NCBI GenBank assembly: GCA_964626775.1
Contig: CAZVGQ010000001.1
Span: forward strand, 1-40,117
Source: an uncultured Smithella sp.
GTDB taxonomy: Bacteria > Desulfobacterota > Syntrophia > Syntrophales > Smithellaceae
Direction: 5' to 3'
DNA: 40,117 nt
Shown: positions 1-18,687 of the stretch, in pieces
Layout of the letters: the number at the start of each line of letters is the position of its first letter
Position numbering within the stretch: the first letter of the stretch is position 1
Made by a program: the position numbers and the translations under genes
The notes under the pieces: generated by a model
The model's database searches: none
Told to the model about the DNA's origin: nothing
Seen by the model: only the letters and a program-made list of their open reading frames with translations

Positions 1-124
1 CCCGGGCAAGATCATGGCTGATCAGGTTTTCGGGCGGAATGCCGCGCCGGTAAAGTCGTTCCAGGGATTTGATTTGCTGGGCGCCGAGTCCTGAAGTATT
101 GCCGAATATTTTATTGATGGTCTG
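1..124 (-). CDS. possible 5' end of a CDS running off the left edge (product unknown)
   Basis: The minus-strand frame is open from the in-frame TGA at 125-127 to the window edge. It translates to QTINKIFGNTSGLGAQQIKSLERLYRRGIPPENLISHDLAR, which is protein-like. There is no ATG, GTG or TTG in the open stretch, so the start is unresolved. From memory it loosely resembles N-termini of HflX-type GTPases; this is unverified. Confidence 0.25.
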
Positions 125-168
125 TCATCCTCATGCCGGGAGTTTCGATGCAAATGCGCGCTTTTTGT

Positions 169-3018
169 TCATTCATACATGGCCGAAAGCAGTTCCAGGA
201 TTCTGGACTGGCCGGGCGATGTCGGATCCGTCGCCATATTGACCGCGTCGCGCGATGTATAAAAGGCGATTTCCTTCAAGGCTTCCCGGGAAATGCCGTA
301 GGATTTGAGCCGCAGGTCGATTTGCAGTTCTGTGTAAAGCCGGCGGAGCGCCGTCTCCAGGTCATCCGACCGGTTGATGAGGTAGGCCATGTCCATAAAC
401 GCGTCGCGGCAGGTTTCCCTGTTGGCCATCACGAAGCCCAGCAGACCGAAGATGGCCGCCCGTCCGTGCGGCAGATGATAATGCGCTCCGATGGCGTGGG
501 TGAGGGCGTGGCCAAGCCCCAGGCCTTTGAGGAACGCCAGGCCGCCGCAGAGGGCCGCCATGCACATGTCGGTCCGCGCGCGCATGTTGTCCGGCTCGCG
601 GTATGCGGTAATGAGGCTCCGGCCGATGAGTTTGATGCCGTAAAGCGCCTTGGATTCGAAGTAAGGATGGTAAGGCGTCGCAAGCGAAACATAGCCTTCG
701 ATGCAGTGCGACAGAGCGTCGACGCCGGATTCGATGGTCAGGCCCGGCGGCATGGTTTTGGTGAAGAGCGGATCGATCACCGCGAGCTTCGGAATGAAGT
801 GATTGCTCATGAGAATGAACTTCAAATCGCGGGCCTTGTCAGTCAAAACGGCGCAGGGATTGACTTCGCTGCCGGTGCCGGAGGTGGTCGGCAGGCAGAT
901 GATCGGCGGAAAGATCGGTTTGATTTTGCCGCCGCCGCCGACAATGCCTTCGTATTCGCGCAGATCCCCTGAATGCGTGACGCGCAGGCCCAGTGTTTTG
1001 GCCGTGTCCAGCGAAGAGCCGCCGCCCAGCCCCAAAATGCCGTTGCAGCCCGTTTCCTTGTACAGGGCGCCCGCGCGTTCGATGAGTTCGATGGGCGGGT
1101 CCGGTTCGACTTCGGCGAAAAATTCCGCTTCAATGCCGCTTTTCTTCAAAATGTCGGCGACTTCGCTGGCCCGACCGCTTTTGAGCATGAACGGATCGGT
1201 GACCAGGAAAATCTTGGACACTTTCATGTCACGGATTTTCCGGCCCATGGATCTGGCGACGCCTTCGCCCATCAGAATGTCGGGCATCGGCGGGATGCGG
1301 ATTTCCCAGACTTTCTTCTTTTCCCGGAACGTGTCGAGGCCCTTCCATAAATTCCGCACTTCTGCTTCGTCGACGTCGAAGACGGAACTGGTCGGCGCGA
1401 CGAGCTCCTCGCGGAAAAAGGTGGGAATCGTCGTATCGATCCTGCTGAACTGCGCCTGTTCGTTGAAAGCCAGCTGGTCGCGCAGGGTTTCCTTGGCGGT
1501 AGCAAGAATGCCCTCTTCGGTCAGCTTAAGGCCGTAGCGCGCGTTCATGAGCCCGGCAAAGAAAGGATACACGGATTCGCCGCCGGGAACGGCGTTGAGG
1601 CAGTAACCGAACGCATCGCAGGCCGCCGCCCGAATCTGCGTCGCCAGCGACGTCTGGATCTGGTCTTTCTTTTCCTTGGGCTGGCGGTAGGTGAGGCCGG
1701 CCGTGTGGTCCGCGCCCATGGGCGAGGAAAAGTACGTGACACCCGTTCCCTTGACCGCGCGGGGATCGTGGGCGGGCAGAGCCTGGCCTTTGAAGGCGGG
1801 AATGCGTTCCACGTTGAGGAAACGGGCCGTTGTCACGACGCCGTTGCCGAGCGCGAAGCCGAGCGGCGTTTCCTTTTCGATTTCCAAAAGCAGGCTTTCC
1901 GCGCCTTTGGCGTCGCCCCAGTTCATTTTGCCCGCTTCGGCCGCGACGCCCAGCGCGCTGCCCGCTTCGATGCCGTCGAGACCGATGTCGTCGCACAGGA
2001 ACTTCAGCCGGGCGATGGCGTCGTTGTCGGTGATGCCCAGGTTGGTTCCCAGAAGAGCGATCGTTTCGTATTCATACGCCGCGCAGATTTTTTTGCCCTC
2101 TTTGTCCGGATAGATGATCGAGCACTGCACCAGACAGCCGGGCATGCAGCCATGCATTTTTCCGCCGCGCTCGAACAGGATCTTCTGAATGTTGTTGCCG
2201 CTGACTTCCGTGAAATTGTCAGGGCGTCCGGAGCGGTAGTTCATGGCCGGAAGCGTGCCGTGGCCCGCGGAGTTGTTGATCGCAAACGGCGTCCCGAAGC
2301 GCGTGTAAAGGCTGATGGTGACGTCGTGTTTCATCATTTCCGCCCATTCGCGGACGGTTTTGCGAAAGGCGTCCGGATCGGCCAGCACGACCTGCTCCGT
2401 TCCAGTCGGGTCCAGAATGACGGCTTTGAGACCTTTGGAGCCCATCACGGCGCCCAGGCCGCCGCGAGCGGCGTTGCGCGAGGGATCGCCGAAAATGTCG
2501 GTGAGCGACACGGACGCCCCCTTGTACTGGCGCTCTCCGGCAATTCCCGTGGAGATCACGGCGACTTTGTCGGAATATTTTTTATGGATGGCGGAAACCA
2601 GGTCGTAATTTTTCAGACCGCGGTACTCTTCGGCCGGCACCAGCTTTACATTATCCTTCGTCACTACGAGCACGCGGAGTTTTCCGTCCCGCGGCATGCC
2701 TTCAAATACGATGGCGCGCAATCCCAGACGATCCAGATACTGCCCGGCGGGTCCGCCCGAGTTCGCTTCCTTGATGCCCTGTGTGAGCGGGCTTTTCGCG
2801 CCGATGGACATACGCCCCAATTGCGGCGCGCGTGTGCCGGCCAGCGGACCGCACGCGACGATGAGCTTATTGTCCGGGCCCAGCGGATCGCATTGCGGCG
2901 GGACTTCCCGGTTGAGGATTTTAGCAATTAAGGCGCTGCCGCCCAAATAGGTCCACTCCGACGGAAGCGGTTCGGCGGATACTTTTTGTTCATTCAGCGA
3001 TACGCGCAGGATTTTCAT
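169..3018 (-). CDS. fusion protein: aldehyde:ferredoxin oxidoreductase (W/Mo-pterin AOR family) N-terminal part plus iron-containing alcohol dehydrogenase C-terminal part
   Basis: A single 949-aa ORF. The N-terminal ~565 aa look like AOR: MKILRVSLNEQK...GGSALIAKIL..., the Cys cluster GCMPGCLVQC, and a DAFGYC motif. The C-terminal ~370 aa look like Fe-ADH: KIFLVTDPFM, GLGGGSSLDTAK, DALSHCIEGY and GHALTHAIGAHYHLPHG. A GGGGGA ribosome-binding site lies upstream of the ATG at 3018. Confidence 0.85.
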   Translation of the reverse strand: MKILRVSLNEQKVSAEPLPSEWTYLGGSALIAKILNREVPPQCDPLGPDNKLIVACGPLAGTRAPQLGRMSIGAKSPLTQGIKEANSGGPAGQYLDRLGLRAIVFEGMPRDGKLRVLVVTKDNVKLVPAEEYRGLKNYDLVSAIHKKYSDKVAVISTGIAGERQYKGASVSLTDIFGDPSRNAARGGLGAVMGSKGLKAVILDPTGTEQVVLADPDAFRKTVREWAEMMKHDVTISLYTRFGTPFAINNSAGHGTLPAMNYRSGRPDNFTEVSGNNIQKILFERGGKMHGCMPGCLVQCSIIYPDKEGKKICAAYEYETIALLGTNLGITDNDAIARLKFLCDDIGLDGIEAGSALGVAAEAGKMNWGDAKGAESLLLEIEKETPLGFALGNGVVTTARFLNVERIPAFKGQALPAHDPRAVKGTGVTYFSSPMGADHTAGLTYRQPKEKKDQIQTSLATQIRAAACDAFGYCLNAVPGGESVYPFFAGLMNARYGLKLTEEGILATAKETLRDQLAFNEQAQFSRIDTTIPTFFREELVAPTSSVFDVDEAEVRNLWKGLDTFREKKKVWEIRIPPMPDILMGEGVARSMGRKIRDMKVSKIFLVTDPFMLKSGRASEVADILKKSGIEAEFFAEVEPDPPIELIERAGALYKETGCNGILGLGGGSSLDTAKTLGLRVTHSGDLREYEGIVGGGGKIKPIFPPIICLPTTSGTGSEVNPCAVLTDKARDLKFILMSNHFIPKLAVIDPLFTKTMPPGLTIESGVDALSHCIEGYVSLATPYHPYFESKALYGIKLIGRSLITAYREPDNMRARTDMCMAALCGGLAFLKGLGLGHALTHAIGAHYHLPHGRAAIFGLLGFVMANRETCRDAFMDMAYLINRSDDLETALRRLYTELQIDLRLKSYGISREALKEIAFYTSRDAVNMATDPTSPGQSRILELLSAMYE

Positions 3019-3056
3019 AAATTCCCCCGGTCAGGATCAAAAGTTTGTGTGGCTGG

Positions 3057-3086
3057 AATATACAGAAGAAAACAGGGGCAAGTCAA
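3057..3086 (-). promoter_or_regulatory. candidate sigma70 promoter for the AOR-ADH gene (TTGACT-N18-TATATT on the minus strand)
   Basis: The reverse complement of 3081-3086 is TTGACT and that of 3057-3062 is TATATT, with an 18-nt spacer. It lies downstream of the abfD terminator and ~40 nt upstream of the start codon. Confidence 0.3.
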
Positions 3087-3164
3087 TGAAATAATAGGCT
3101 GAGGGGCTATTAGGCTGAAGGCCGAAGACTAAAGGATAAAGTAAAAGTTTTTAAAAGAGAAACG

Positions 3165-3200
3165 GGTACTTCCGCCGGATTTTTGTCCAGCGGAAGTACC
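3165..3200 (-). terminator. Rho-independent terminator after abfD
   Basis: An 11-bp perfect stem, GGTACTTCCGC (3165-3175) pairing with GCGGAAGTACC (3190-3200), with a 14-nt loop. On the minus strand it is followed by the T-rich CGTTTCTCTTTTAAAAACTTTT. It sits 8 nt after the abfD stop. Confidence 0.6.
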
Positions 3201-3207
3201 GGGGAAA

Positions 3208-4668
3208 CTATTTCTTTTCTTCCTTGATGCCGGCGATGTTTTTGGCCAGATTTTTCTTTTGCTCCAGATTGCCCTGGCGGGCGATCATGATGCGCTGCGC
3301 CTGGGGCGAACCGGCGCCGTGCATCGACTCCGTGCGGTAACCGACCGCCGCCGTGCCCAGCGTCAGGTTTTCCACCAGCCGCATGATCCGCGCCCGGTCT
3401 TCACAGGAAACATTGGCGGTTCCCTTCAGGTATTTCTCCAGGATTTTCGAAATCTCCGGATTCTTCATGTCTTTCTCGGAAGCCATCGTCACCATCATCC
3501 CGCCCGCGATGTCCTCAGCCAAACGGCAGATTTCATAGGGGAAACGGGTGACGTTCTGCTTGCAGACGTTGGCCAGCAAAAGGTCGATGAGGTAGGTGCC
3601 GGATGCCGTCTTGTGCCCCTGGGCGGAACAGGCGATGCCACAGGAAAAAAGCGTTTCGTTGAGATGCGTCATCTCGATGAGCTTGTCCTTGATGTGGGAG
3701 GCCTTATTCGCTCCGTTGTAATCCGCCGCCAGGGCCGCCGCGCCGATGAGAACGTCGCCCACGCCGACCTTGCAGCCGCCGTAGCTCTGCCGGTGATAAC
3801 CGGCAAACCGCTCGACCAGCATGCCGGAAAACTCAGTTTCGCCGCACATGAGGACGTTTTCCCAGGGAATGAAGACGTTGTCGAAGACCATCAGGGCTTC
3901 ATGGCCGCCAAACTGGTGGTTGCCGACGTCAATGGTGCCGCCTTCCAGTTTCCGCGTGTCGCAGGACTGGCGGCCGTAGATGTAGAAGATGCCCTTCTCA
4001 TCCGCCGGGCAGACGAAGGAGACGGCGTAATCCGCGTCGTCCTTTCCCATGGCGACGGTGGGCATGACCAAAACCCAGTGGGAGTTGACGGCGCCGGTCT
4101 GGTGGGCCTTGGCGCCCCGCACGACGATGCCCTTGTCGTTTTTCTCGACGATGTGGACGTACAGGTCGGGGTCGGCCTGCTGATGGGGAGCCAGTCCCCG
4201 GTCTCCTTTGACGTCGGTCATGGCGCCGTCTACGGTCAGGTCTTCTTCCTGGACCATTTTCAGGAATTGGATGAAGCGTTCATGGTACTTGGTGCCCAGT
4301 TTCCGGTCCATTTCATAGGTGGTGCTGTCGACGGCGTTCATGGCGTCCATGCCCACGCAACGCTGAAAGCAGGAGGCGGTCTGCTGCCCTAAAAGCCGCT
4401 GCATTTTGACTTTCTTGATCAAATCGTCAGTGCTCTGATGCAAGTGGGTGAAACGGTTTATTTTGTTCCCGGTCAGATGGGATTTGGCGGTCATCAAATC
4501 TTCATATTCCGGCTTCTGGGCCAAAGCGTAGGTCATTTTGACGGAGTTCATGGAGGGACGGATAATGGGGTGGTCAACCCAGTTCTCCACCAGCTCCCCC
4601 ATGAGGTAGATCTTGAAGTTCATCCTTCTCAAACTTTCTTCATACTGCTCGGGCGTTTTTAAAGACAT
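3208..4668 (-). CDS. abfD: 4-hydroxybutyryl-CoA dehydratase / vinylacetyl-CoA delta-isomerase
   Basis: The protein resembles Clostridium aminobutyricum AbfD, as I recall it, along its whole length (MSLKTPEQYEESLR..., NRFTHLHQSTDDLIKKVKMQRLLGQQTASCFQRCVGMD, ERFAGYHRQSYGGCKVGVGD, ESMHGAGSPQAQRIMIARQGN). The Cys/His [4Fe-4S] ligand motifs are present. I chose the start at ATG 4668, which is preceded by AGGAGG. The longer ORF reaching 4758 has no ribosome-binding site. Confidence 0.93.
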   Translation of the reverse strand: MSLKTPEQYEESLRRMNFKIYLMGELVENWVDHPIIRPSMNSVKMTYALAQKPEYEDLMTAKSHLTGNKINRFTHLHQSTDDLIKKVKMQRLLGQQTASCFQRCVGMDAMNAVDSTTYEMDRKLGTKYHERFIQFLKMVQEEDLTVDGAMTDVKGDRGLAPHQQADPDLYVHIVEKNDKGIVVRGAKAHQTGAVNSHWVLVMPTVAMGKDDADYAVSFVCPADEKGIFYIYGRQSCDTRKLEGGTIDVGNHQFGGHEALMVFDNVFIPWENVLMCGETEFSGMLVERFAGYHRQSYGGCKVGVGDVLIGAAALAADYNGANKASHIKDKLIEMTHLNETLFSCGIACSAQGHKTASGTYLIDLLLANVCKQNVTRFPYEICRLAEDIAGGMMVTMASEKDMKNPEISKILEKYLKGTANVSCEDRARIMRLVENLTLGTAAVGYRTESMHGAGSPQAQRIMIARQGNLEQKKNLAKNIAGIKEEKK

Positions 4669-4869
4669 TAGTTTCCTCCTGGCGTTGCGGCTTTGATCGA
4701 GCCGTCTGTTGTTTGATGGTTTGTTTTGTAATTTGGCCACTCCTTGTGGGGATGTCAACCAACGATCGCGGCCGAATCAGGGAACGCTCTCGATAATCTG
4801 GCCACCTGATTACCTAAAGGTCATGCGAGGTGGTGCGAGGTTACAAGGGTGTTCCCTGCGCTCACTTTC

Positions 4870-6051
4870 CTACAACATTTCAATAATAAAAGCCTGGCCG
4901 GGGCCGCCGCTGGCACAAAGCGCCGCGCAGCCGAATTTCTTGCCGCGGCGTCTGAGTTCGCCCATCATGGTGACGATCAGCCGGGCGCCCGTCGCACCGA
5001 CCGGATGGCCCATGCTGATGCCCGAGCCTACGGCGTTGACGTTCTCCAGGGAAATCTTCAACTCGCGGTTGCAGCCGATGACCTGGGCGGCAAAGGCTTC
5101 GTTCAATTCAAAATAATCAATGTTTTCCAGCTTCATCTTTGCAAATTTCAGAGCATTTTTGACGGCCGGGACCACGCCCATGCCCATGATGCGGGGCTCG
5201 ACGGAGCCGGGGGCGGAAGCCACCACCCGGGCGATGGGTTTCACCCCCAGTTCTTTGGCTTTCTCGGCTGCCATCATGATCAGGCAGGAACCCGCGTCAT
5301 TCAAGCCGGACGCGTTGCCGGCGGTGACCGTGCCGTCTTTTTTGAAAACGGGCTTGAGTTTGCTTAAAGACTCCATGCTGGTGTCCGCCCGGGGATGCTC
5401 GTCTCTTTCGAACAGGGCCGGCCCTTTTTTTGTTTTGATTTCCACCGGAACGATTTCATCCTTGAACCAGCCTTTTTCAATGGCCGCGCAGGCTCTCTGA
5501 TGGCTCATCAATGCCCATTCATCCTGTTCCTGCCGGGATATGCCGTACTGGTCGGCGATGTTGTCGGCCGTAATGCCCATGTGGTAGCCCAGAAGCGCGT
5601 CCACCAGGCCACCGATCATCAAGCTGTCCTGGATTCTTTCGCCGTCGTTGAGGCGGTACCCCTTGCGGGCGCCGAACAGCAGATACGGAGCGTTGCTCAT
5701 GCTTTCAATGCCGACGACCGCGCCGATGTCGACTTTGCCCAGCATGATTTCCTGGGAAAGCAGCTCCGCGCCTCGCATGGAAGAACAGCACTGCTGGTGA
5801 ACCGTGAAAGCAAAAGATTCTACCGGCAGCTCCGCACCGAGCGCGATGTGACGGGCGCTGTTTCCCGGCGCCCCGGCCTGGTTGCACTGGCCCGCTACGA
5901 CTTCCTGAATCAGGTTTTTATCGATGCCGGCCTTCGCAATGCCGCCTTTTAGCGCCGCGATTCCCAATTGAATGGGGCTGAATCCCGACAGAGACCCCAT
6001 GTAATCTCCAATAGCCGTTCTGGCTCCGCTGACAATCACCACTTCTCTCAT
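4870..6051 (-). CDS. acetyl-CoA C-acetyltransferase (thiolase)
   Basis: MREVVIVSGARTAIGDYMGSL N-terminus, with NEAFAAQ, GHPVGATG and CASGGPGQA C-terminal thiolase motifs. The start is ATG 6051, downstream of GAGAGAGG. Confidence 0.9.
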   Translation of the reverse strand: MREVVIVSGARTAIGDYMGSLSGFSPIQLGIAALKGGIAKAGIDKNLIQEVVAGQCNQAGAPGNSARHIALGAELPVESFAFTVHQQCCSSMRGAELLSQEIMLGKVDIGAVVGIESMSNAPYLLFGARKGYRLNDGERIQDSLMIGGLVDALLGYHMGITADNIADQYGISRQEQDEWALMSHQRACAAIEKGWFKDEIVPVEIKTKKGPALFERDEHPRADTSMESLSKLKPVFKKDGTVTAGNASGLNDAGSCLIMMAAEKAKELGVKPIARVVASAPGSVEPRIMGMGVVPAVKNALKFAKMKLENIDYFELNEAFAAQVIGCNRELKISLENVNAVGSGISMGHPVGATGARLIVTMMGELRRRGKKFGCAALCASGGPGQAFIIEML

Positions 6052-6437
6052 GATTTTGACCTCTCTCAATTTTATTTTTTGCGCTTTGGAAATAAGCGTT
6101 AATACACGTTTTGAACCACCCGATACCGCGGCAGTCCATCGCTTCTGACCAATAACTTACAAAAGTCTCTTTTCAAAATATTCGTGCTCTTACCAATTAT
6201 TATTTTATGTGGCAAGTCCTTATTAACGAATAGACCTAAAAGCGCTGAAAGAAGAACCGCATAGTAATCATTATGTAATAACAAAGGGATACGTATTACG
6301 TCCGTTTGTTTTGCAGGCGAATATTGAACATGGATAAATTGTGTATTTGTTTTTTCAATTAGGCAAATCTTTTCAGTGAAGATCCGTTCCTGCCTTGATC
6401 AAAGATATAGGGATCGGGGGTAAGTCTGAATACATTT

Positions 6438-7550
6438 TTACAACAGGCTCGCAAATCCACGGATATCGTTAATGGTTGCCAAGTACACCTCTGGCATCGC
6501 GGTTCTAAACATGCAATCACCGATGTGGCATGTGCCGTTTACCGTACGGCCGACCGCCTTGACGGAAGCGTGCAATAATTTGCGATAGTAAGCCAGTCCT
6601 TCATCTCGGAGAGGGCAGAGTTCATTGACGGATATGACGTGCGGCGGGAGACCGATCAGGTCTTCCTTTGCGGCGAAGTAAGGCCAGCACAGGGGGTTGT
6701 GGTTGTTGGACCCGCCGGGATCATAGACTGAAGCCAAGACGCTGCTCAGGGCATTATTGACAAAGTACAGGTCATTTTCCGTCAGAGACGGAAGGTTTTC
6801 AGTCTGCTGGGATGGTTCCCAGGCATACGCGCCATAGATATACGGCGCCATGGCATAAACGCCGTTAATGATCTGCAGGAGTCCATCTCGTTTGGCTTTC
6901 AACGCTGTCGCCAGGGCGAGATTTGCCCCTCCTGAGTCTCCGGAAATCACTATCTTGGAAAGGCCAAGCCGCTTGCGGTTGGCATGGAGCCACGCCAGCG
7001 CGCTGGTGCAGTCGTCCAGTCCGCTGGGAAATGGATGCGGACCCAAAATCCCCGCCGCATTGCGGAATTCAACCCCGACGGCAACCATACCGGCCGCTGC
7101 GAGGTGATCTCGCCATTGTTGATACAGGGGACCGGCAGCCTGCAACATAACCATTGCCCCGCCGTGCAAATGGAGAATGCAGGGCAATGGTTTTTTTATG
7201 TGATCAGGTTCGTGGATGTAAAGATGCAAGGAATGACCATCAATCCCTGTGATGGTTTCGGTTGTCCGCACCACCGTGGTGATCTCCGGCGCGTCCTTCA
7301 CCAACGCCGCAAAAAAGGCCTCAAAACCGGTTTCCGCCGCTGCACAGAAATGGAGCTTGTCGGCAAGGGTAGAATCCGGTCGGACAGGAGGCGCGGGCGG
7401 AAAGGTATCTAATCCGAATGGCGCCAGCGCAGCGACCATGCGCGGATCGGAACGGGGGTCCTGCCGGAGATCACTCGCCGGATTACCCAGGCGCCCCGGT
7501 AAGACCATGTTACGCCTTTTTCCGTTGGTTTCGACGTTTATCGGATGCAA
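6438..7550 (-). CDS. alpha/beta-fold carboxylesterase, hormone-sensitive-lipase type (family IV)
   Basis: An HGG oxyanion motif (LHLHGGAMVM), a GDSGG nucleophile elbow (ISGDSGGANLA) and no signal peptide. The TTG start at 7550 is preceded by AAGGAG. Confidence 0.8.
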   Translation of the reverse strand: MHPINVETNGKRRNMVLPGRLGNPASDLRQDPRSDPRMVAALAPFGLDTFPPAPPVRPDSTLADKLHFCAAAETGFEAFFAALVKDAPEITTVVRTTETITGIDGHSLHLYIHEPDHIKKPLPCILHLHGGAMVMLQAAGPLYQQWRDHLAAAGMVAVGVEFRNAAGILGPHPFPSGLDDCTSALAWLHANRKRLGLSKIVISGDSGGANLALATALKAKRDGLLQIINGVYAMAPYIYGAYAWEPSQQTENLPSLTENDLYFVNNALSSVLASVYDPGGSNNHNPLCWPYFAAKEDLIGLPPHVISVNELCPLRDEGLAYYRKLLHASVKAVGRTVNGTCHIGDCMFRTAMPEVYLATINDIRGFASLL

Positions 7551-7574
7551 GGGGATTCTCCTTTTGTTGTTACG

Positions 7575-8846
7575 TCAATCTAGGATTGCCTGATACACCG
7601 CATTGCGCAAAATTTTACGGTCATAAAGCCGCTGGGCCGGTTCCTGAATCATAAAAATAACGAAGAGCTCTTTTTGAGGATCAACCCAGAAACTGGTGCC
7701 GGCCAATCCGTACCAGTAATAATCTCCTGCGCTTCCCGGCCAGGGTTCTTTACCGTCCTGAAGCCGGACGGCGACGCCCATTCCGTAGCCATAACCGGCG
7801 CCCGGCAAGTAAAGAGGACCGGGTTTGATTTCGGGCCCTAGTTGATTGGTTGTCATCTGTTCTATCATTTTGGGTTCGAGCAGTCGAACACCGTCAAGCT
7901 GTCCTTTGTTGAGCATCATTTGCAAAAAGCGGGCGTAGTCGGCCGCCGTGGAGACCATCCCCGCGCCGCCGGAGAGCCAGGTCGGCGCTGTGCTGACGTT
8001 AATCAGAAAAGGAACCTTTCCTGTTTTAGGATCTTTTTGTCCTTGGGCCAGGCGGTTCAGTCTGTCCGGCTGTACGTAGAATGCGGAATCCGTCATTTTA
8101 AGAGGACGGGTAATTCGTTCCTCGACAAAACGGTCCAGAGGTATTCCGGAAACGATTTCAATGACGCGGCCCAGAATATCCGTTGAAAGGCTGTATTCCC
8201 AGGTGGTGCCAGGCTCGTGGGCCAGCGGCAGTTTGCTCAGCTTTGCGGCAATATCCTGGAGATTCTGGTTGGGCATTTCCACGCCCGCCTTGATGTAAAG
8301 CGATTTCGTTGCGGATTTTCCAAGGAATCCGTAAGTTAATCCGGATGTATGTCTCAGCAGATCGAGAATCGTCATGGGTTTGGTCGCGGGTTTTTCGATG
8401 CAGACCGGATTGCTGCTGGCGTCCTTGGATTCCTCGCAGACCTTGAGGTCGGCGAAGGCAGGGATAAATTTGGACACCGGGTCCGAAAGCGTCATTTTGC
8501 CTTCCTGAACCAGCATCAGGGCGCCCACCGTCACAACAGGCTTCGTCATGGAGTAAATGCGGAAAATGGAGTCCTTCTGCATGGCCGACTTATTTTCTTT
8601 ATCCCGCATGCCGAAACTCTCAAAGTAAGCGATTTTACCGCGTCTTGCGACCAGAACCACGGCCCCGGGCAGTTTTTCCACCTGAACATCCGCCGCGACC
8701 GTCTCCGTGATGCGGTTGAGTTTTTCAGATGATAAGCCCACGCTTTCCGGCTTGACAGCGGAAAGATTGCCTGCGCACCCCGCTGTCATGTAAACCAAAA
8801 CGGCAGTCAGGATGACCTTTAACCAGAAACGTTTGATCGTTTTCAT
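7575..8846 (-). CDS. beta-lactamase-fold serine hydrolase (family VIII esterase / class C-like), predicted lipoprotein
   Basis: An S-x-x-K motif (IYSMTKPV). The N-terminal signal peptide has a lipobox-like sequence, VLVYMTAGC. The start overlaps the upstream stop (ATGA). Confidence 0.8.
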   Translation of the reverse strand: MKTIKRFWLKVILTAVLVYMTAGCAGNLSAVKPESVGLSSEKLNRITETVAADVQVEKLPGAVVLVARRGKIAYFESFGMRDKENKSAMQKDSIFRIYSMTKPVVTVGALMLVQEGKMTLSDPVSKFIPAFADLKVCEESKDASSNPVCIEKPATKPMTILDLLRHTSGLTYGFLGKSATKSLYIKAGVEMPNQNLQDIAAKLSKLPLAHEPGTTWEYSLSTDILGRVIEIVSGIPLDRFVEERITRPLKMTDSAFYVQPDRLNRLAQGQKDPKTGKVPFLINVSTAPTWLSGGAGMVSTAADYARFLQMMLNKGQLDGVRLLEPKMIEQMTTNQLGPEIKPGPLYLPGAGYGYGMGVAVRLQDGKEPWPGSAGDYYWYGLAGTSFWVDPQKELFVIFMIQEPAQRLYDRKILRNAVYQAILD

Positions 8847-9652
8847 ATTTTCTCCTTTACCGATTGTAAAAACGCCAGAACGGCTTGATTGAACGGTTCA
8901 CTGTCTTCGATAAAAAAACAATGCCTCAGGGCTGGAAACATTTTCAGATGCGCATGAGGCATCAGCTCTTTTAAAATCACGGAATTTTGCGGCGGAATGA
9001 GCGGATCATCCTCTCCGGACAAAATCAGTGTCGGCGCTTTGACCAAGGAGATGCGGTTGACCGTATCATGCTTCTGGCAGGCGTTGAACTGTTGTACAAA
9101 CGCCTCCGCCGGCTGGTACCAGCGCATGGAAAGCTCGCTGAAGATCCTGACCTCCTCAGGGTGGTTGCGGATAAATCGATCGGAGAAAAAAATATCCATA
9201 TTCTTTTGAAGGATTTCCTCCGGGGTCAGCCCTTGTATATCCGCAAATTTTTCCGCCCGGTCTGCGCTCATGGTCACGGCGCGGGTCCCGCCGGCGCCTG
9301 TGGATACCAGCGTCAGACTGTCGACCATGTGTGGATGGCTAATGGCCAGCTCCTGGGCGATATAACCTCCCATGGAATAACCGAGAATGTGAGCGTGTTT
9401 AATGCCCAGAGAGCGCATCAATCCGGCCGTATCATCGGCAAATTGCTCGATGCTGTATTCACCCGCCGGTTTGTCGGTTCGCCCGGACCCGCGATTATCG
9501 AACACGATCACCTGGTAATGCGCCGACAGATCCGGCAATTGTTTGTACCACCATTCAATGTTGCGGCGAATGCCCATGATGAGCAACAGGGGTTCGCCGC
9601 TCCCGTGAATTTCGTAATATATATTGATCCCGTTGACATTTTGTTGGGGCAT
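8843..9652 (-). CDS. alpha/beta hydrolase (esterase or C-C hydrolase type)
   Basis: NGINIYYEIHGSGEPLLLIMG and a GYSMGG nucleophile elbow. I chose the start at ATG 9652, 2 nt after the upstream gene's TAA. The longer ORF would overlap that gene. Confidence 0.8.
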   Translation of the reverse strand: MPQQNVNGINIYYEIHGSGEPLLLIMGIRRNIEWWYKQLPDLSAHYQVIVFDNRGSGRTDKPAGEYSIEQFADDTAGLMRSLGIKHAHILGYSMGGYIAQELAISHPHMVDSLTLVSTGAGGTRAVTMSADRAEKFADIQGLTPEEILQKNMDIFFSDRFIRNHPEEVRIFSELSMRWYQPAEAFVQQFNACQKHDTVNRISLVKAPTLILSGEDDPLIPPQNSVILKELMPHAHLKMFPALRHCFFIEDSEPFNQAVLAFLQSVKEKI

Positions 9653-9653
9653 T

Positions 9654-10892
9654 TTAGTCCTCGATTTTGATCCAGACTTTTTTGTTGTTGCTTTTCGCCA
9701 GTTTTTTGTCCTTCTCAAATTCCTGCTGTGTTTTTTGCCACCAGAAGAATTCCTGAGGAACGGTGAATTTTCCGTTTTTGACCATGGTGACCCTGGAGGT
9801 CTGCATGAAGCGCCCCTTCTCCGTCAGCCCGTAGTTTTCCAGAACAAATTTATCGCCCGTTTGCGGGAAGGCTTTGGGAAACGCGGCGCGGATGGCATGA
9901 ACATCCGTTGCCGTTCCCGCGATGGTCATGGCTTTGGCCAGAGCATGAACGGCGCCATAGTTGGTCAGAACGTCGTAGGTATAGGGTCTTTTGTAGCTGG
10001 CGCTATAGGATTTACCGAACGTTTTGCTGGCGGGAACATCGATCATCGACGGCGGGGCCACACCGATGGTTCCTTCCATCAGTTTGACGTCCTTCAAAAT
10101 CGAGGCGATGATTTCCGGTTTGGCTTGCTCCATCAGGACAAAATTTCCTTTAAATCCCATGTTTCTGGCCTGTTCAATCACCAGCGCGGTCGGCGCCGTC
10201 GGTCCACCGGCCACAATGATATCGGGTTTCGTCGCCATGATGGCTGTCAGTTGAGACGAGAAATCCGTTTCCGTATAGTAATTTGCCGGTTTGTCGAGTG
10301 TGATCACACCGCCTTTCTTTTCCCAGTAAGCTTTGAATGCACCCTTCCATTCGTCGCCATAACCACCCACGGTGACCAGCAATCCGGCGCTCCGTGCTCC
10401 CTGCGCCCAGGCCATCTCGGCTTCAGGGTAAACATAACTTAAAAGTGTTGTGGTGATAATCAATCGCAAGCTGTTGGGAATTTGGACGGCCCTGGGGCTG
10501 GTCGTATACCCCATCACCAGAAATTCGTTGTTTTTTTCTTCGTTGACCTTCAACAGGGCGGAGATCGTAATAAAGGCCGGATTGAACACAGCAACGGCGC
10601 CGTTGGACCGCAAACGTCGTGCATTATTGACCGTCTGCACGGGGTCAATACGATCATCCATTCTTTCGAGCTTAAACGTATGAGGCACGCCGGAAACCTT
10701 AAAACCTCCGGCAGAATTAATTGCATTGACGGCCATTTCAATGCCGTTGAAACAATCCTGACCATATTCCGCCGCCGGACCGCTCAAAGGTCCTGTGAAT
10801 CCGATCAGCACTTCTTTGGCATGGCTTGCCGGAGCTGCAAAGAGCATAACAAAAAAACCCAACAACACAATGACTCCCTTTAATTTTCTCAT
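9654..10892 (-). CDS. ABC transporter substrate-binding protein (type 1 periplasmic-binding fold, Liv/Bra-like)
   Basis: A signal peptide (MRKLKGVIVLLGFFVMLFAAPASHA) followed by IGFTGPLSGPAAEYGQD, typical of Leu/Ile/Val-binding-protein family members. Confidence 0.85.
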   Translation of the reverse strand: MRKLKGVIVLLGFFVMLFAAPASHAKEVLIGFTGPLSGPAAEYGQDCFNGIEMAVNAINSAGGFKVSGVPHTFKLERMDDRIDPVQTVNNARRLRSNGAVAVFNPAFITISALLKVNEEKNNEFLVMGYTTSPRAVQIPNSLRLIITTTLLSYVYPEAEMAWAQGARSAGLLVTVGGYGDEWKGAFKAYWEKKGGVITLDKPANYYTETDFSSQLTAIMATKPDIIVAGGPTAPTALVIEQARNMGFKGNFVLMEQAKPEIIASILKDVKLMEGTIGVAPPSMIDVPASKTFGKSYSASYKRPYTYDVLTNYGAVHALAKAMTIAGTATDVHAIRAAFPKAFPQTGDKFVLENYGLTEKGRFMQTSRVTMVKNGKFTVPQEFFWWQKTQQEFEKDKKLAKSNNKKVWIKIED

Positions 10893-10950
10893 AATCCTTT
10901 CCTTTCTTTTGAAATGTAATGTTTGTTAACCCGTTTGAATCTGCAAAATG

Positions 10951-12246
10951 CTATTGTCTGTAAATCTCTTTAAATTCCCGCTTTAAGTCTTCTCTGAATT
11001 CAGGAGCCGCGATTTTTGACAGGGCTTCCACGCGTTCCCTGACGGTTTTCCCCCAAATGTTGGCAATTCCATATTCCGTGACAATGTAATCTACTTCGGC
11101 ACGCGTCGTGGTAACAGCCTGGCCTCTTTCAAAGGCTGCCACAATCCTCGATTTTGTGCCGGACGCCGCAGTAGCCGGCAAAGCAATCACACTCCTTCCC
11201 CCTGATGAAATTCTACAGCCTCTCACAAAATCAACTTGTCCTCCAACACCGCTATACTGAACGGGACCGATGGCATCTGCCGCAACCTGTCCCAACAGGT
11301 CAACGGCCACCGCTGAATTAACGGAAAACATGTTGTCGTTTCTTCCAATAACGTAAGGATTGTTGGTATAATCAACAGGATGCATCTCAATCATGGAATT
11401 CTCATGCATCCACTCATAGAGCTGGTCGCTCCCCAGGGCGAATGTAAAAATCATTCTGCCGCGATGGAAGTTCTTTTTCCGGCAGGTGATGATCCCTTTT
11501 TCAACGAGATGCATCACCCCGTCAGAAATCATTTCCGAATGGATGCCGAGGTCATGCTTTCCTTCTATAAATCTCAATATGGCATCCGGAATCTGGCCAA
11601 ATCCCAGCTGCAGACAGTCGCCGCTTTTAATTAATGTGGCCACATTAGACGCAATAGCTTCTTCCACCGGCCCAATGTTGGGCGACGGAAGCGGCAACAT
11701 GGGACGATCACTGACAATAAAGTGACCGATCTGTGAAACATGCAGAAAAGTGTCTCCATAGGTTTTCGGCATGAAGGGCGAAACTTCCGCAATAACCTTT
11801 TTGGCATTTAAAGCCGCGGCCAGGGAATAATCCACGGAGATGCCCAGGCTGACGTTCCCCACTTTATCGGGCAGCGATACCGAAATCAGGGCAACGTCAA
11901 TCGGCAGAACGCCTCTACGAATTAATGAGGGATAGTCGCTGAGGAATGCCGCCGTGAAATCAGCACGATCCTCTCTTATGGCCTGCCTTTGCGTAGGTCC
12001 GGCAAACATGGCATTATGTCGAAAAGAATTCTGATATTCAGGACGACAATATAAACTTTTGCCATAAGATACCATGTGCACGATTTCTACGTTCTGGAGT
12101 TCATGAGCTCGTTTGACCATCGCGTCATAAACCGGTTCAGGCGTGCCTCCGCCGGTTCCTGAAATGATTCGATCCCCCGACTTGATCAAATGTGCTGCTT
12201 CTTCTACGGTGATTGCTCGTTCACGGATGTATTGGTTCCAGTCCAT
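10951..12246 (-). CDS. acetyl-CoA hydrolase/transferase family protein, 4-hydroxybutyrate CoA-transferase-like
   Basis: Typical length (~431 aa) and motifs: GIHSEMISDG (candidate catalytic Glu), SGVGGQVDF (GxGGxxD) and YIVTEYGIANIWGK. ATG 12246 lies 7 nt after AGGAG. Confidence 0.8.
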   Translation of the reverse strand: MDWNQYIRERAITVEEAAHLIKSGDRIISGTGGGTPEPVYDAMVKRAHELQNVEIVHMVSYGKSLYCRPEYQNSFRHNAMFAGPTQRQAIREDRADFTAAFLSDYPSLIRRGVLPIDVALISVSLPDKVGNVSLGISVDYSLAAALNAKKVIAEVSPFMPKTYGDTFLHVSQIGHFIVSDRPMLPLPSPNIGPVEEAIASNVATLIKSGDCLQLGFGQIPDAILRFIEGKHDLGIHSEMISDGVMHLVEKGIITCRKKNFHRGRMIFTFALGSDQLYEWMHENSMIEMHPVDYTNNPYVIGRNDNMFSVNSAVAVDLLGQVAADAIGPVQYSGVGGQVDFVRGCRISSGGRSVIALPATAASGTKSRIVAAFERGQAVTTTRAEVDYIVTEYGIANIWGKTVRERVEALSKIAAPEFREDLKREFKEIYRQ

Positions 12247-12272
12247 CACTAACTCCTATTGGCCTTTTCTTG

Positions 12273-12983
12273 TTAAACACCCAGGTATGTCTTCATGATA
12301 TCCGGCCGCCTTTTTAGTTCCAGAACACTGCCCTGCCACAGTACATGACCCTTTTCGAGGATGTAGACGCGGTCTGATACATTAAGCGCGAAACTGGAAT
12401 TTTGTTCGGAGAGAAGAATCGTCAACCCTTCCTTCTTGAGTTCCATAATTTGATCTTCAATCATCTGGGTGACCATGGGCGCGAGACCTTCGGAGGGTTC
12501 GTCGAGCAGCAGCAATAAAGGATTTCCCATCAAAGTACGGGCAATCGTGAGCATCTGCTGTTCGCCTCCTGAAAGCGTGCCTGCCCATTGGCCGCTGCGC
12601 GTTTCCAGAACCGGGAACAGGCGATGCACTTTCTCCATTGTCCAGTTGAGGCTCTTTCTGCTTTTCGGACTGTCCTTCATGGCGATTTCGAGGTTTTCAC
12701 GTACGGTCAGATTGGAAAATATTTCCCGATCTTCAGGCACAAATCCCACGCCGAGGCGGGCGATTTTGAAGGGCGGCTTGCTGGTGATTTCAGTTCCCAG
12801 GAACTTGATGTGGCCGGACTGTGGATGCGTAAGCCCCATAATGCTGCGAAAAGTTGTTGTCTTTCCCACACCATTGCGCCCCAGCAGACACACCGTCTCA
12901 CCTTCATGAACCTCCATGGAAACATTGAATAAAATATGACTCAGATCATAGTAAGTGTTGATCTCACGAATTTCTAATAGCAT
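12273..12983 (-). CDS. ABC transporter ATP-binding protein (LivF-type)
   Basis: Walker A GRNGVGKTT, signature LSGGEQQ and Walker B LLLLDEP. Its start overlaps the upstream stop by 1 nt. Confidence 0.9.
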   Translation of the reverse strand: MLLEIREINTYYDLSHILFNVSMEVHEGETVCLLGRNGVGKTTTFRSIMGLTHPQSGHIKFLGTEITSKPPFKIARLGVGFVPEDREIFSNLTVRENLEIAMKDSPKSRKSLNWTMEKVHRLFPVLETRSGQWAGTLSGGEQQMLTIARTLMGNPLLLLLDEPSEGLAPMVTQMIEDQIMELKKEGLTILLSEQNSSFALNVSDRVYILEKGHVLWQGSVLELKRRPDIMKTYLGV

Positions 12984-13726
12984 CAGTGATTTCCCTCCCC
13001 CAGATAAATTCTCTGCACTTCACTGTTATTGCGGACGCTCTGTGGCGTTCCGCTGAAAATCACCGCGCCTTGATGCAAAACAATGATTTTGTCGGATATC
13101 CCGAAGACGACCTTCATATCGTGTTCCACAAAGATTAGTGTCAATCCCCGTTCCCTGACTAGTTTCTGAATGAGTTGAGTGGTTTCTTCCGTTTCCTGCG
13201 GGCTCATCCCCTGTGTGGGCTCATCGAGCAACAATAAGGAAGGATTCGTTGCCAGTGCAATGCCCATTTCCAGACGCTTCTGATCCCCATGCGCCAGAAG
13301 ACCTCCTTTGAAATGCTTTTTGTTCAGGAGTCCCACACTGTCCAGAATGGCTTCCGTTTCAGAAACGACCATTTTTTTGGCATTGGAAAAAAGCAGGTGA
13401 CTTTTACCCGTGGCGGAAAGGATGGCCACTTGAATGTTTTGAAAGGTAGTCAGCTTGGAAAAAATGTTGATGCGCTGGAACGAACGGCCTATCCCCATGC
13501 GCGAAATCAAATGAGGCGCAATGCCGGTGATGTTCCTGCCACGAAAAAAAACGTTTCCGGAATCAGGAACAATATGTCCGGTGAGGAGATTGAACAAGGT
13601 TGTTTTTCCCGCCCCGTTGGGTCCGATGACGGACACGAGTTCTTTTTCCTGAATTTGGAAGCTGATGTCGTTGGTCGCGGTGATGCCGCCGAATTTCTTG
13701 ATCAGATTGTTCGCTTCAAAAATCAT
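12983..13726 (-). CDS. ABC transporter ATP-binding protein (LivG-type)
   Basis: Walker A GPNGAGKTT and Walker B LLLLDEP. The start MIFEANNLIKKFGG is at 13726, in an ATGA overlap with the permease stop. Confidence 0.9.
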   Translation of the reverse strand: MIFEANNLIKKFGGITATNDISFQIQEKELVSVIGPNGAGKTTLFNLLTGHIVPDSGNVFFRGRNITGIAPHLISRMGIGRSFQRINIFSKLTTFQNIQVAILSATGKSHLLFSNAKKMVVSETEAILDSVGLLNKKHFKGGLLAHGDQKRLEMGIALATNPSLLLLDEPTQGMSPQETEETTQLIQKLVRERGLTLIFVEHDMKVVFGISDKIIVLHQGAVIFSGTPQSVRNNSEVQRIYLGEGNH

Positions 13727-14703
13727 AGTCCGTTTTCTTCCTTTCCGCCACTGAACCGGTCCGCCGCCCAAGCCAGCTTTTCATGAATAAAGCCGACGAT
13801 CCCGCTGCGCATGAATAAGACCAAAAACGCGATGATGATCCCCAGATAAAACATCCAGTAAGTTGTTCCTTTGGCAATGGTTTTGCTCAGGAAGATATAA
13901 ACCACGGAACCAACGATGGGTCCGGCAAAGCTGTGCAGTCCGCCGAGAAGACAGACGACAAGCATATCGGTGGATTTTGCCCAGTGTGCATAATCGGGAA
14001 AGACGCTGCCCGCAAAAACGCAGTAGAGCGAACCGGCGATGCCCAGAAAAATGCTGGAGATGACAAAGATGGCAAGCTGATAGCGGCGAACGGCCACGGA
14101 AATAAATTCCGTGCGCAGCGGGTTTTCGCGAATGGACTGAATGGTGATGCCAAAAGGAGAATGGACGATCTTCCAGATGATAAAAATGCAAATGAGCGTA
14201 ACGGCCAGAATGAAATAGTAAGACTGAATGATGGAGGACACATAGTCGGGAATGGGAACGCCGATGATGCCGTTGTCGCCGTTGGTGAAATCGTACCACT
14301 GAAAAATCACAGTCCAGATGATTTGGGCAAAGGCCAGCGTCAAAAGCGCGAAGTAAACCGCATTGCGGCGGACGCAAAACCATCCCACCGCAACGCCGAC
14401 GAGTCCCGCCATGACCGGCGCCGCAAGAAACGCGGCGGGCAAAGGCATGCCGTAACGCGACAGAAGAATCGCGGTCGTGTATGCGCCCACGCCGTAAAGT
14501 CCCGCGGGCCCGAAGGACACCATCCCGCCGTAGCCGACGATCAAATTCAGCGCGCAGCCGGCCAGCGCCATGATCAGCATTTCTATGATTAGACTGATCC
14601 AGCTTTTGGAGACGACCAATGGCGCTGCGATCAACAAAACAATGACGGCCAAAACCAGCCAGATACCGGCCGTGCGTAATTTGGCAAATAACGGTGTATA
14701 CAA
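13723..14703 (-). CDS. branched-chain-amino-acid-type ABC permease (LivM-type)
   Basis: A polytopic membrane protein with LivM-like length and composition. It sits between a LivH-type gene and a LivG-type gene. TTG start. Confidence 0.85.
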   Translation of the reverse strand: MYTPLFAKLRTAGIWLVLAVIVLLIAAPLVVSKSWISLIIEMLIMALAGCALNLIVGYGGMVSFGPAGLYGVGAYTTAILLSRYGMPLPAAFLAAPVMAGLVGVAVGWFCVRRNAVYFALLTLAFAQIIWTVIFQWYDFTNGDNGIIGVPIPDYVSSIIQSYYFILAVTLICIFIIWKIVHSPFGITIQSIRENPLRTEFISVAVRRYQLAIFVISSIFLGIAGSLYCVFAGSVFPDYAHWAKSTDMLVVCLLGGLHSFAGPIVGSVVYIFLSKTIAKGTTYWMFYLGIIIAFLVLFMRSGIVGFIHEKLAWAADRFSGGKEENGL

Positions 14704-14714
14704 TTGATTTCCCC

Positions 14715-15593
14715 CTATTCCGGCTTACCCATGAGACCCCATGGACGCACGATTAAAATGATGATCATGAGCATGAAGGGAAAAGCCACGGCCAGTTTCG
14801 GCATCACCAGAATCCCAAAAGCATTGAGAAAACCCAGAATGACCGCACCGATAAAAGCGCCAGGCAGGCTTCCCAGACCGCCGATGACAACGATAATGAA
14901 GCATTCAATAATCACGTGCATATCCGCGCCCAGCGCCACAACCGACATGGGGGGCATCAAAGCACCGGCGAGCCCCGCAAGATAACAGCCCAGCATGAAA
15001 ACGCCGGTATAAACCCGGGGCACATTGATGCCCAGCGCGTTGGCCATATCGCGGTTCAGCGTGACGGCCCGTACAATCCGACCTAATTCGGTATAGCGCA
15101 TCAAAGCGAGCAAAGCGGCAAAAATGGCCATTCCGCAAATGATCAGGAAGATGTTGTAAATCGGGAATGACATACCCAGAAAGGCAATGCTTCCGGTCAG
15201 CGGCCAGGGGACGGCTATGGTTTTAAAGGAAACACCAAAAACGTATTTTAAAACGTCGCCAAAAATCAAAATCAGCGCGAAGGTCAATATGTACTGGTAG
15301 AGCATGTCCTGCGAATAGATGCGCCGAAGCAGCAGGACTTCAACAAATCCTCCCAGTACGGCCACCGTGATGGGGGCAAGAAGCAGAGCCCACCAGAAAG
15401 AACCGCCGGCGTTGGCAAACATGTTTGTGAAGGCAAAACACAAAAAGCTTCCCATCATGAAAAAGGTCCCGTGCGCCAGGTTCAGAATTTTCATGGTTCC
15501 GAAGATGAGGGATAACCCCGCTGCAATAAGAAACAAGACAAGCCCGACGCTGATTCCACTGATAAATTGACTGACAAACGACTCAATCGTCAC
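14715..15593 (-). CDS. branched-chain-amino-acid-type ABC permease (LivH-type)
   Basis: A LivH-like N-terminus (SGISVGLVLFLIAAGLSLIFGTMKILNLAHG). The GTG start is preceded by AAGGAGG. Confidence 0.85.
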   Translation of the reverse strand: MTIESFVSQFISGISVGLVLFLIAAGLSLIFGTMKILNLAHGTFFMMGSFLCFAFTNMFANAGGSFWWALLLAPITVAVLGGFVEVLLLRRIYSQDMLYQYILTFALILIFGDVLKYVFGVSFKTIAVPWPLTGSIAFLGMSFPIYNIFLIICGMAIFAALLALMRYTELGRIVRAVTLNRDMANALGINVPRVYTGVFMLGCYLAGLAGALMPPMSVVALGADMHVIIECFIIVVIGGLGSLPGAFIGAVILGFLNAFGILVMPKLAVAFPFMLMIIILIVRPWGLMGKPE

Positions 15594-15664
15594 TGACCCA
15601 ACCTCCTTCTGGCACAGGGCCCGGGATATGAATCTTTACCCCGGGCCCCGCAGGTCATCTGTAA

Positions 15665-18665: not shown

Positions 18666-18687
18666 AATGTTCAAGGCTGAGACTATT

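Follow-up and report, generated by a model that had tools for sequence, protein, structure and literature searches.

Can one polypeptide carry both of the enzymes that lead from a carboxylic acid through its aldehyde to an alcohol, and if so, what would such a protein do in its host? These questions are raised by a gene at one end of a 40,117-nucleotide stretch of DNA, here called the window, from an uncultured Smithella sp. (GenBank assembly GCA_964626775.1, contig CAZVGQ010000001.1, positions 1 to 40,117). The open reading frame (ORF) at 169 to 3018 on the minus strand is complete: it runs from an ATG at 3018-3016 to a stop codon at 171-169 and comprises 949 codons with zero internal stops. 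No further ORF starts within the 168 nucleotides between this stop and the window end. The predicted protein consists of four Pfam domains, all scoring far above gathering cut-offs of 27 to 31 bits. AFOR_N (PF02730; 199 bits versus a cut-off of 30), the pterin-binding N-terminal domain of the aldehyde:ferredoxin oxidoreductase (AOR) family, covers residues 2-203 (nucleotides 2410 to 3015, minus strand). It is followed on the same strand by AFOR_C domains 2 and 3 (PF01314; 165 bits versus a cut-off of 27, profile positions 4-344 of 385) at residues 223-540 (1399 to 2352), by the Rossmann-like N-terminal domain of an iron-containing alcohol dehydrogenase (Fe-ADH; PF00465, 153 bits) at residues 580-750 (769 to 1281), and by the C-terminal helical domain ADH_Fe_C (PF25137, 118 bits) at residues 761-948 (175 to 738). 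A first-pass annotation, made from the letters of the window alone, had proposed that one uninterrupted frame joins a complete AOR to a complete Fe-ADH; the ORF and the profile matches bear this out for both modules and fix their borders. The motifs it quoted were all located in the protein, namely, GCMPGCLVQC (residues 290-299) and DAFGYC (468-473) in the AOR half and GGGSSLD (665-671), DALSHC (767-772), and HALTHAIGAHYHLPHG (837-852) in the Fe-ADH half. The architecture of the gene is thereby settled, and we consider it probable that it encodes a genuine bifunctional enzyme with the two activities that its parts predict.

The fused frame is conserved among orthologues

The simplest objection is that AOR and Fe-ADH are two genes in this organism and that an error in sequencing or assembly shifted the frame, or a stop was overlooked, near nucleotides 1250 to 1325. 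Separate, adjacent genes of the two families do exist elsewhere (loci L028, L063, and L073; loci and proteins of the collection carry L and P numbers). Against this, a search for orthologous fusions among 5.8 billion proteins brought up more than 120 clusters at 70 to 96% identity, all with the four domains and with the same continuous frame of about 949 residues. The clusters are 941 to 967 residues long, except for one 849-residue entry (P0059) that covers 89% of the query, and they were drawn from independent NCBI, JGI, ENA, and Logan assemblies; where named, they come from Smithella, Smithellaceae, Syntrophales, or Thermodesulfobacteriota. The nearest relative is a protein 96% identical at locus L090 (GCA_030153525.1). 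More distant single-ORF fusions (954 to 971 codons from stop to stop, 55 to 56% identity) occur in species-representative genomes of Spirochaetota (L013 and L015) and Desulfobacteraceae (L014), so that independent metagenome-assembled genomes (MAGs) of several phyla contain the fusion as a single ORF. Because the frame is continuous in so many orthologous clusters and in independent genome assemblies, a sequencing artefact is excluded, and we give this objection practically no chance of being correct.

The junction itself provides a further argument against an artefact. It spans residues 541-579 (nucleotides 1282 to 1398, minus strand) and, judged by per-column conservation, comprises a short C-terminal AOR tail and a conserved connector. 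In an alignment of 121 sequences, P542, F547, D548, W558, L561, E572, R574, I575, P576, P577, and P579 are invariant, and the segment is not low-complexity; W558, L561, E572, and R574-I-P-P577 in particular speak against an accidental join. So many invariant columns mark the junction as a structured connector and not as a linker of low complexity. The first-pass annotation had placed the junction at nucleotides 1250 to 1325, that is, residues ~565 to 590, in agreement with the positions at which unfused AORs end (~555 to 565) and Fe-ADH alignments begin (~576 to 580). In an AlphaFold2 model of the fusion, the mean predicted local distance difference test score (pLDDT) was 73.6 and the predicted template modelling score (pTM) was 0.59; the linker and cofactor loops fell below a pLDDT of 50, with low values at residues 528-555 and 568-577.

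Public records name only half of this protein. It is an "iron-containing alcohol dehydrogenase" in NCBI and an "aldehyde:ferredoxin oxidoreductase" in JGI, so that metabolic reconstructions built on either name overlook the activity of the other half. Several contigs carry two fusion paralogues. In L005 and L006 (10001-15865 in each), two copies stand in tandem, the first 77% (AOR half) and 70% (ADH half) identical to the window protein and the second 82% and 84%. A long acyl-CoA dehydrogenase gene lies downstream of the pair, where L006 ends; L005 adds a second thiolase gene and a methyltransferase gene.

Cofactor and catalytic residues of the AOR half

The AOR half matches the solved structures 9mqx (E = 1.5e-56) and 1aor (E = 1.2e-53), the AFOR_N region being alignable to both from residue 2-4, and its identity to characterized AORs, as estimated from these two alignments, is approximately 30 to 35%. 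Among the 121 family members, T243, E316-Y-E318, C342-D343, G346, D348, D437-H438, D468, and G471-Y-C473 are invariant. By alignment to 1aor and 9mqx, T243 corresponds to Thr243 of Pyrococcus AOR, E316-Y-E318 corresponds to Glu311/Tyr312/Glu313, and H438 corresponds to His448. The pterin-binding motifs, both of the form D-x-x-G, are D343-D-I-G-L-D348 (D338/D343 in the Pyrococcus enzyme) and D468-A-F-G-Y-C473 (D489/C494), and their residues D343, G346, D348, D468, G471, and C473 do not vary.

The ligands expected for the [4Fe-4S] cluster are similarly intact. The motif C291-x3-C295-x3-C299 (nucleotides 2122 to 2148, minus strand) and the expected fourth ligand, C473, are invariant in the 121 sequences and correspond to C288, C291, C295, and C494 of Pyrococcus AOR. 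The first-pass annotation had remarked that the spacing differs from that of the Pyrococcus enzyme, and comparison with 1aor, which has CxxCxxxC (C288-Y-A-C291-P-I-G-C295), confirms the difference; the three clustered cysteines can be aligned with those of 9mqx given a one-residue insertion. We rejected the idea that Cx3Cx3C is a special mark of the fusion. An exhaustive search of 1.84 billion representatives at 50% identity found this spacing in nearly all unfused AOR relatives of ~557 to 594 residues, and it is the norm for the whole ~570-residue subfamily. The same relatives argue against reading the truncated AFOR_C match as an incomplete AOR: they end at query positions ~555 to 565, so that, by the standard of its subfamily, the module lacks nothing.

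The sole real deviation in the AOR half is His417, within LPAHDPR (codon at 1768 to 1770, minus strand), which occupies the position of the second-shell residue Tyr427 in the 1aor alignment. According to a 2025 review, the conserved AOR second shell consists of Thr243, Glu313, Tyr427, and His448 (PMC12096430); the fusion has T243, E318, and H438, all three invariant, and His417 takes the place of Tyr427. The histidine is invariant throughout the main fusion clade; most unfused relatives have tyrosine here, as do the distant fusions P0131 and P0160. The same Tyr-to-His change is present in the active AOR of Clostridium formicoaceticum and in WOR5/ASOR (PMC12096430). Because it occurs in an active AOR, His417 is compatible with aldehyde oxidoreductase activity, and it could tune specificity. 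Taken together, these features place the N-terminal half in the short (~570-residue, Cx3Cx3C) AOR subfamily, as a predicted aldehyde:ferredoxin oxidoreductase with a metallopterin and a [4Fe-4S] cluster.

The Fe-ADH half

The C-terminal half matches structures 8zwd (E = 3e-53) and 3owo (E = 6e-49), and its closest solved relatives are methanol, ethanol, and 1,3-propanediol dehydrogenases. The motifs VTD608, G665-G-G-S668, and T711-T-S-G-T-G-S-E718 are invariant in the 121 sequences. The predicted metal ligands D767, H771, H837, and H851 align to D194, H198, H263, and H277 of Zymomonas ADH2 (3owo); the first three are invariant, and H851 is histidine in 120/121 sequences and glutamine in one. 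On the basis of these matches, the module is assigned to the group-III iron alcohol dehydrogenases. The invariant aspartate of VTD suggests NAD(H) as its cofactor, by analogy with Asp39 of FucO, which we take to be the counterpart of D608 and the basis for NAD preference.

The specific function of this half is less readily assigned from family models. The best NCBIfam scores are those of the regulatory protein ErcA (258 bits versus a cut-off of 550), 4-hydroxybutyrate dehydrogenase (NF058672; 232 versus 500), choline dehydrogenase (224 versus 550), and lactaldehyde reductase (203 versus 523). Thus, the module does not qualify as a 4-hydroxybutyrate dehydrogenase (4HbD/GbD) under NF058672.

AOR and Fe-ADH have been joined repeatedly

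The partnership of the two families recurs. In addition to the main clade, the exhaustive search, followed by Pfam scans, recovered two further AOR-to-ADH fusion lineages, represented by P0126 (977 residues, 40% identity) and by P0131/P0160 (35 to 36%), for a total of three. Proteins with the reverse order, ADH to AOR, were also found (P0212, P0237, and P0243; ~1004 to 1029 residues); the P0212 family includes at least 65 clusters, from Oscillospiraceae or Anaerovoracaceae where named. The AOR half of the reverse-order proteins belongs to a different AOR clade, being closest to the ~630-residue AORs with CxxCxxxC spacing, e.g., that of Desulfosporosinus.

An AOR-domain tree, built by neighbour joining and carrying no support values, places these lineages apart from one another. 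The main fusion clade is monophyletic, with the Spirochaetota and Desulfobacteraceae members included, and its sister group consists of the unfused AORs P0124, L016, and L017 plus L018. P0126 and P0131/P0160 branch separately among unfused short AORs, and the ADH-to-AOR forms fall in the long-AOR clade. We read this pattern as at least four independent AOR/Fe-ADH fusion events. Unfused genes of the two families are also found side by side, as AOR then ADH in a member of the Bacillota (L028) and as ADH then AOR in Syntrophales (L063) and Ca. Zipacnadia (L073). That the two families have been fused or placed side by side again and again, with either one first, is classical evidence for an intermediate shared by AOR and Fe-ADH and supports a real coupling of their functions.

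Two relatives show other arrangements around the short AOR subfamily. In L018 (3420-6596, plus strand; MAG JAOZRE010000095.1), a 1,058-residue ORF joins a pyridoxal phosphate-dependent decarboxylase domain (Pyridoxal_deC, residues 606-943, 79 bits) to a short Cx3Cx3C AOR, which is 47% identical to the AOR half of the window protein and belongs to the sister group of the main fusion clade; the AOR thus has a second kind of fusion partner, as undescribed as the first. The closest unfused AOR relative (50% identity) precedes a gene for a D-2-hydroxyacid dehydrogenase rather than an Fe-ADH (L016:11937-13067, plus strand), which hints at other possible dehydrogenase partners for the subfamily.

Proposed reaction and direction

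The sequences show the architecture, the retention of cofactor-binding and catalytic residues, the recurrence, the independent origins, and the gene contexts; the activities, direction, substrate, and any channelling of the aldehyde are predictions. The AOR module would interconvert a carboxylic acid and its aldehyde with ferredoxin at the metallopterin/[4Fe-4S] site, and the Fe-ADH module would interconvert the same aldehyde and the primary alcohol with NAD(P)H. The net process would be a four-electron reaction independent of CoA and ATP: acid + Fd(red, 2e-) + NAD(P)H <-> alcohol. The potential of the acid/aldehyde couple is approximately -580 mV and that of the aldehyde/alcohol couple is approximately -200 mV; ferredoxin lies at about -420 to -500 mV and NADH at -320 mV. 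Given these values, the four-electron sum is near equilibrium, and the benefit of a fusion would lie in a small aldehyde pool. The free reactive aldehyde would be kept low, and the unfavourable step would be pulled by the favourable one. The acid-aldehyde-alcohol logic, already proposed in the first-pass annotation, agrees with the known AOR-ADH pathway (PMC10816221), with the occurrence of fusions in both orders, and with the adjacent unfused pairs.

In Smithellaceae and other Syntrophales, the enzyme would probably run in the oxidative, catabolic direction, from an alcohol or omega-hydroxy compound to the acid, and would then yield NADH and reduced ferredoxin in a 1:1 ratio. This direction is favoured because the gene contexts look catabolic, with uptake systems and hydrolases among the neighbours, because the reverse would cost a syntroph expensive reduced ferredoxin, and because a 1:1 yield would suit confurcating hydrogenases. 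In the sub-clade of the window gene, the adjacent abfD and thiolase genes (described below) make a C4 compound a candidate substrate for the abfD-linked paralogue only, along either 1,4-butanediol/4-hydroxybutanal/4-hydroxybutyrate or 4-hydroxybutyrate/succinic semialdehyde/succinate. A role in propionate dismutation by Smithella was also considered, in which propionate would be carboxylated to succinate and then reduced to butyrate by way of this enzyme; the stoichiometry fits, and the idea was rejected on a labelling result, since de Bok et al. reportedly saw in 2001 no incorporation of 13C-bicarbonate by S. propionica.

The abfD neighbourhood

Immediately upstream of the fusion gene lies a homologue of abfD, which encodes 4-hydroxybutyryl-CoA dehydratase/vinylacetyl-CoA isomerase (3208 to 4668, minus strand). 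Its product contains the Pfam domains HpaB_N and HpaB and aligns to the Clostridium aminobutyricum structure 1u8v over residues 33-512 (E = 8.7e-233) and to 6vjr (E = 4e-198); judging from these matches, it is a genuine AbfD. The ORF as listed starts at a TTG and runs to 4758; an ATG at 4668 is the more likely start because the 1u8v alignment begins at residue 33 and the orthologues have 486 residues. Upstream of abfD is a gene for an acetyl-CoA C-acetyltransferase, or thiolase (4870 to 6069, minus strand; Thiolase_N/C, TIGR01930 at 411 bits versus a cut-off of 240), whose start is likely at 6051 rather than at the listed TTG, since its orthologues have 393 residues. In the 83% orthologous locus L007, abfD (8336-9794) is split into two overlapping frames that match query residues 1-240 and 239-486, which reflects a true frameshift or else an error in the sequence.

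The fusion gene is probably transcribed from its own promoter, apart from abfD. A 15-bp hairpin with a T-rich tail, resembling a terminator or attenuator, lies directly after the abfD stop codon (3165 to 3200, minus strand), and a putative sigma-70-like promoter, TTGACT-18-TATATT, recognized by consensus match only, lies ~39 nucleotides upstream of the fusion ATG (3057 to 3086, minus strand). The start codon is also preceded by a Shine-Dalgarno-like GGGGGA. The promoter-like hexamers are conserved at the orthologous loci L001 and L089. A hairpin occurs at the same place in L001, L005, and L089 with sequences that differ yet remain self-complementary, so that the changes across the four loci, the window included, look like compensatory changes. 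Because self-complementarity is kept despite sequence change, a functional terminator, attenuator, or RNA-processing site is suggested. On the other side of the fusion gene, L001, L005, L007, and L089 carry genes for a thiamine diphosphate (ThDP) enzyme, which matches PRK07586 ("acetolactate synthase large subunit"), and for a PIG3-type oxidoreductase; L090 does not. These two products are candidates for an aldehyde source, e.g., by way of a 2-oxoacid decarboxylase.

Rival readings of function

A rival reading, stronger than a mere C4 candidacy, would make the enzyme dedicated to a C4 route that feeds AbfD, in which it would either convert succinate via succinic semialdehyde to 4-hydroxybutyrate, replacing Cat1, SucD, and 4HbD of Clostridium kluyveri, or oxidize 1,4-butanediol via 4-hydroxybutanal to 4-hydroxybutyrate. 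Besides the true AbfD and the thiolase before it, this reading draws on the order thiolase-abfD-fusion, which is kept in the window, L001, L005, L089, and L090 (L007 keeps abfD-fusion), on AbfT/Cat2-family CoA transferases and an acyl-CoA ligase nearby in several loci, and on 4-hydroxybutyrate dehydrogenase as the second-best NCBIfam match of the ADH half. However, only the closest sub-clade shows the adjacency, which was seen in 6 of about 18 distinct fusion contexts overall; abfD is not adjacent in the contexts examined at L004, L008 to L015, and L092 to L094. There the fusion gene often stands alone or beside TctC/TctABC, major facilitator superfamily, LacI, or alpha/beta-hydrolase genes. 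The conserved hairpin and promoter-like site separate the fusion gene from abfD, the 4-hydroxybutyrate dehydrogenase score is less than half of its cut-off, and the closest structures are dehydrogenases of other alcohols. The CoA transferase and esterases of the window sit in an insertion that its 96% relative lacks (see below). Reductive use of scarce reduced ferredoxin would also be physiologically awkward for a syntroph. Of the first-pass proposal of a C4 substrate, the AbfD neighbour has stood, and the substrate assignment has not gained comparable ground; even with both variants taken together, we regard a dedicated C4 role as unlikely.

It is also conceivable that only one half works as expected and that the steps are not consecutive, the Fe-ADH half being a sensor or regulator like ErcA, or the AOR half catalyzing a non-aldehyde reaction like WOR5/ASOR, which acts on sulfonates. 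ErcA is the best NCBIfam match of the ADH half, and the AOR half shares the Tyr-to-His second-shell change with WOR5/ASOR. Yet the ErcA score is far under its cut-off, and all NAD- and Fe-binding residues are conserved; Thr243, which ASOR lacks, is kept, and the histidine also occurs in the active C. formicoaceticum enzyme (PMC12096430). Repeated independent fusion and adjacency of the two families is best explained by consecutive reactions, and we consider the one-sided alternative very improbable. Several points nevertheless weigh against the bifunctional acid/alcohol oxidoreductase that we prefer. WOR5/ASOR, which shares the change at Tyr427, has an additional non-aldehyde activity (PMC12096430), and the AOR half might act on something other than an aldehyde. 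Neither half matches any NCBIfam equivalog above the cut-off of that model, and no ferredoxin or tungstate-uptake gene is adjacent to the fusion in the window. The structure model, at its pTM, leaves the inter-domain geometry undefined and gives no guide to a tunnel or to channelling, and the flux direction is deduced from physiology and gene context only.

A fuller picture can be drawn from the preferred bifunctional reading, and we consider it possible, though less likely than not. The protein would be a self-contained reversible acid/alcohol oxidoreductase, independent of CoA and ATP, with internal aldehyde transfer from one active site to the other, an AOR-based counterpart of AdhE that arose convergently at least four times. 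In syntrophs it would supply NADH and reduced ferredoxin 1:1, as electron-confurcating hydrogenases or formate dehydrogenases require, and in Smithellaceae the AbfD route would be linked by one paralogue with C4 diols or omega-hydroxy acids.

An inserted island and other features of the window

Beyond the thiolase gene, positions 6091 to 20161 of the window form a ~14-kb block that is absent from the 96% relative L090, where the flanks are 273 nucleotides apart. The GC content of the block is 0.40 to 0.54, compared to 0.55 to 0.61 in 1-kb bins of window positions 1 to 6000. It encodes three esterase-type hydrolases (HSL-family, AcmB-like with a beta-lactamase fold, and PcaD-like), an AbfT/Cat2-family CoA transferase, two Liv-type binding proteins, a Liv-type ABC transporter, and a PAS-LuxR regulator; a truncated binding-protein ORF lies at 18688-19671. 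In the 1-kb bin at 14001-15000, which lies within the Liv-type permease genes, the AT skew reaches +0.35, far higher than elsewhere in the window. The block looks like an acquired island for ester or lactone utilization. The possibility that esterases, CoA transferase, and ABC transporter form a conserved unit with the fusion was rejected, as the insertion is missing from L090. Farther along, a 632-residue ORF (38007-39905, plus strand) combines the N and C domains of acetyl-CoA hydrolase/transferase with a C-terminal GNAT acetyltransferase; L001 has a different GNAT fusion, with an ADP-forming acyl-CoA synthetase.

Significance and comparison with known systems

Both enzyme families, the two-enzyme pathway, and the architecture as database entries were known already, and the fusion itself is undescribed in the literature searched. 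A full-text search, with most subscription journals outside its scope, found no paper describing a natural AOR-Fe-ADH fusion, and the words "fusion" and "fused" are both absent from the 2025 tungsten-enzyme review. The fusion is no artefact; it is widespread, has arisen by convergent evolution, bears on biotechnology, and is uncharacterized, and mechanistically it would be what its parts predict. AOR plus ADH constitutes the ATP- and CoA-free acid-to-alcohol route of acetogens and thermophiles and is an engineering target in gas fermentation and biocatalysis, for which a natural single-chain version would be a ready-made candidate biocatalyst. The fusion could also explain the handling of alcohols and aldehydes by syntrophic Thermodesulfobacteriota, Spirochaetota, and Bacillota.

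As the first-pass annotation had noted, AOR and Fe-ADH are normally separate proteins, and it is in this form that their joint pathway is well known (PMC10816221). The two-enzyme pathway of acetogens, Thermoanaerobacter, and engineered Pyrococcus employs the same enzyme families and the same proposed CoA- and ATP-free chemistry (PMC10816221). The fusion differs in carrying both modules on one chain with a conserved connector, in drawing its AOR from the short Cx3Cx3C subfamily, and in its hosts, which are syntrophic Thermodesulfobacteriota rather than acetogens. The aldehyde oxidoreductase/carboxylic acid reductase of C. formicoaceticum (AOR-Cf) has the same Tyr427-to-His change and is active on aldehydes and acids (PMC12096430), but it is an unfused homodimer. 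With the 4-hydroxybutyrate pathway of C. kluyveri and C. aminobutyricum (SucD, 4HbD, Cat2/AbfT, and AbfD), the window shares the AbfD homologue, a thiolase, an AbfT/Cat2-family CoA transferase, and an Fe-ADH-family domain. In contrast to that pathway, the window contains neither SucD nor a recognizable 4HbD, both of which the AOR-ADH fusion would have to replace, and the linkage is lineage-restricted, with genes that are apparently separately promoted.

A close functional parallel is AdhE, in which an aldehyde-producing module is likewise fused to an aldehyde-reducing module with the same C-terminal Fe-ADH fold. The ADH domains of AdhE match residues ~600 to 864 of the fusion (E = 1e-38 to 1e-44), and the AdhE model NF010378 matches the ADH part only, at 190 bits versus 951. 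The N-terminal module of AdhE is a CoA-acylating aldehyde dehydrogenase that uses NADH and acyl-CoA, whereas that of the fusion is an unrelated AOR that would use ferredoxin and the free acid. There is no Aldedh domain in the fusion, whose N-terminal 560 residues are AFOR_N and AFOR_C. Thus, the fusion is not a member of the AdhE family, but it may work like one, and it would offer, next to AdhE, a second system in which to examine the channelling of an aldehyde.

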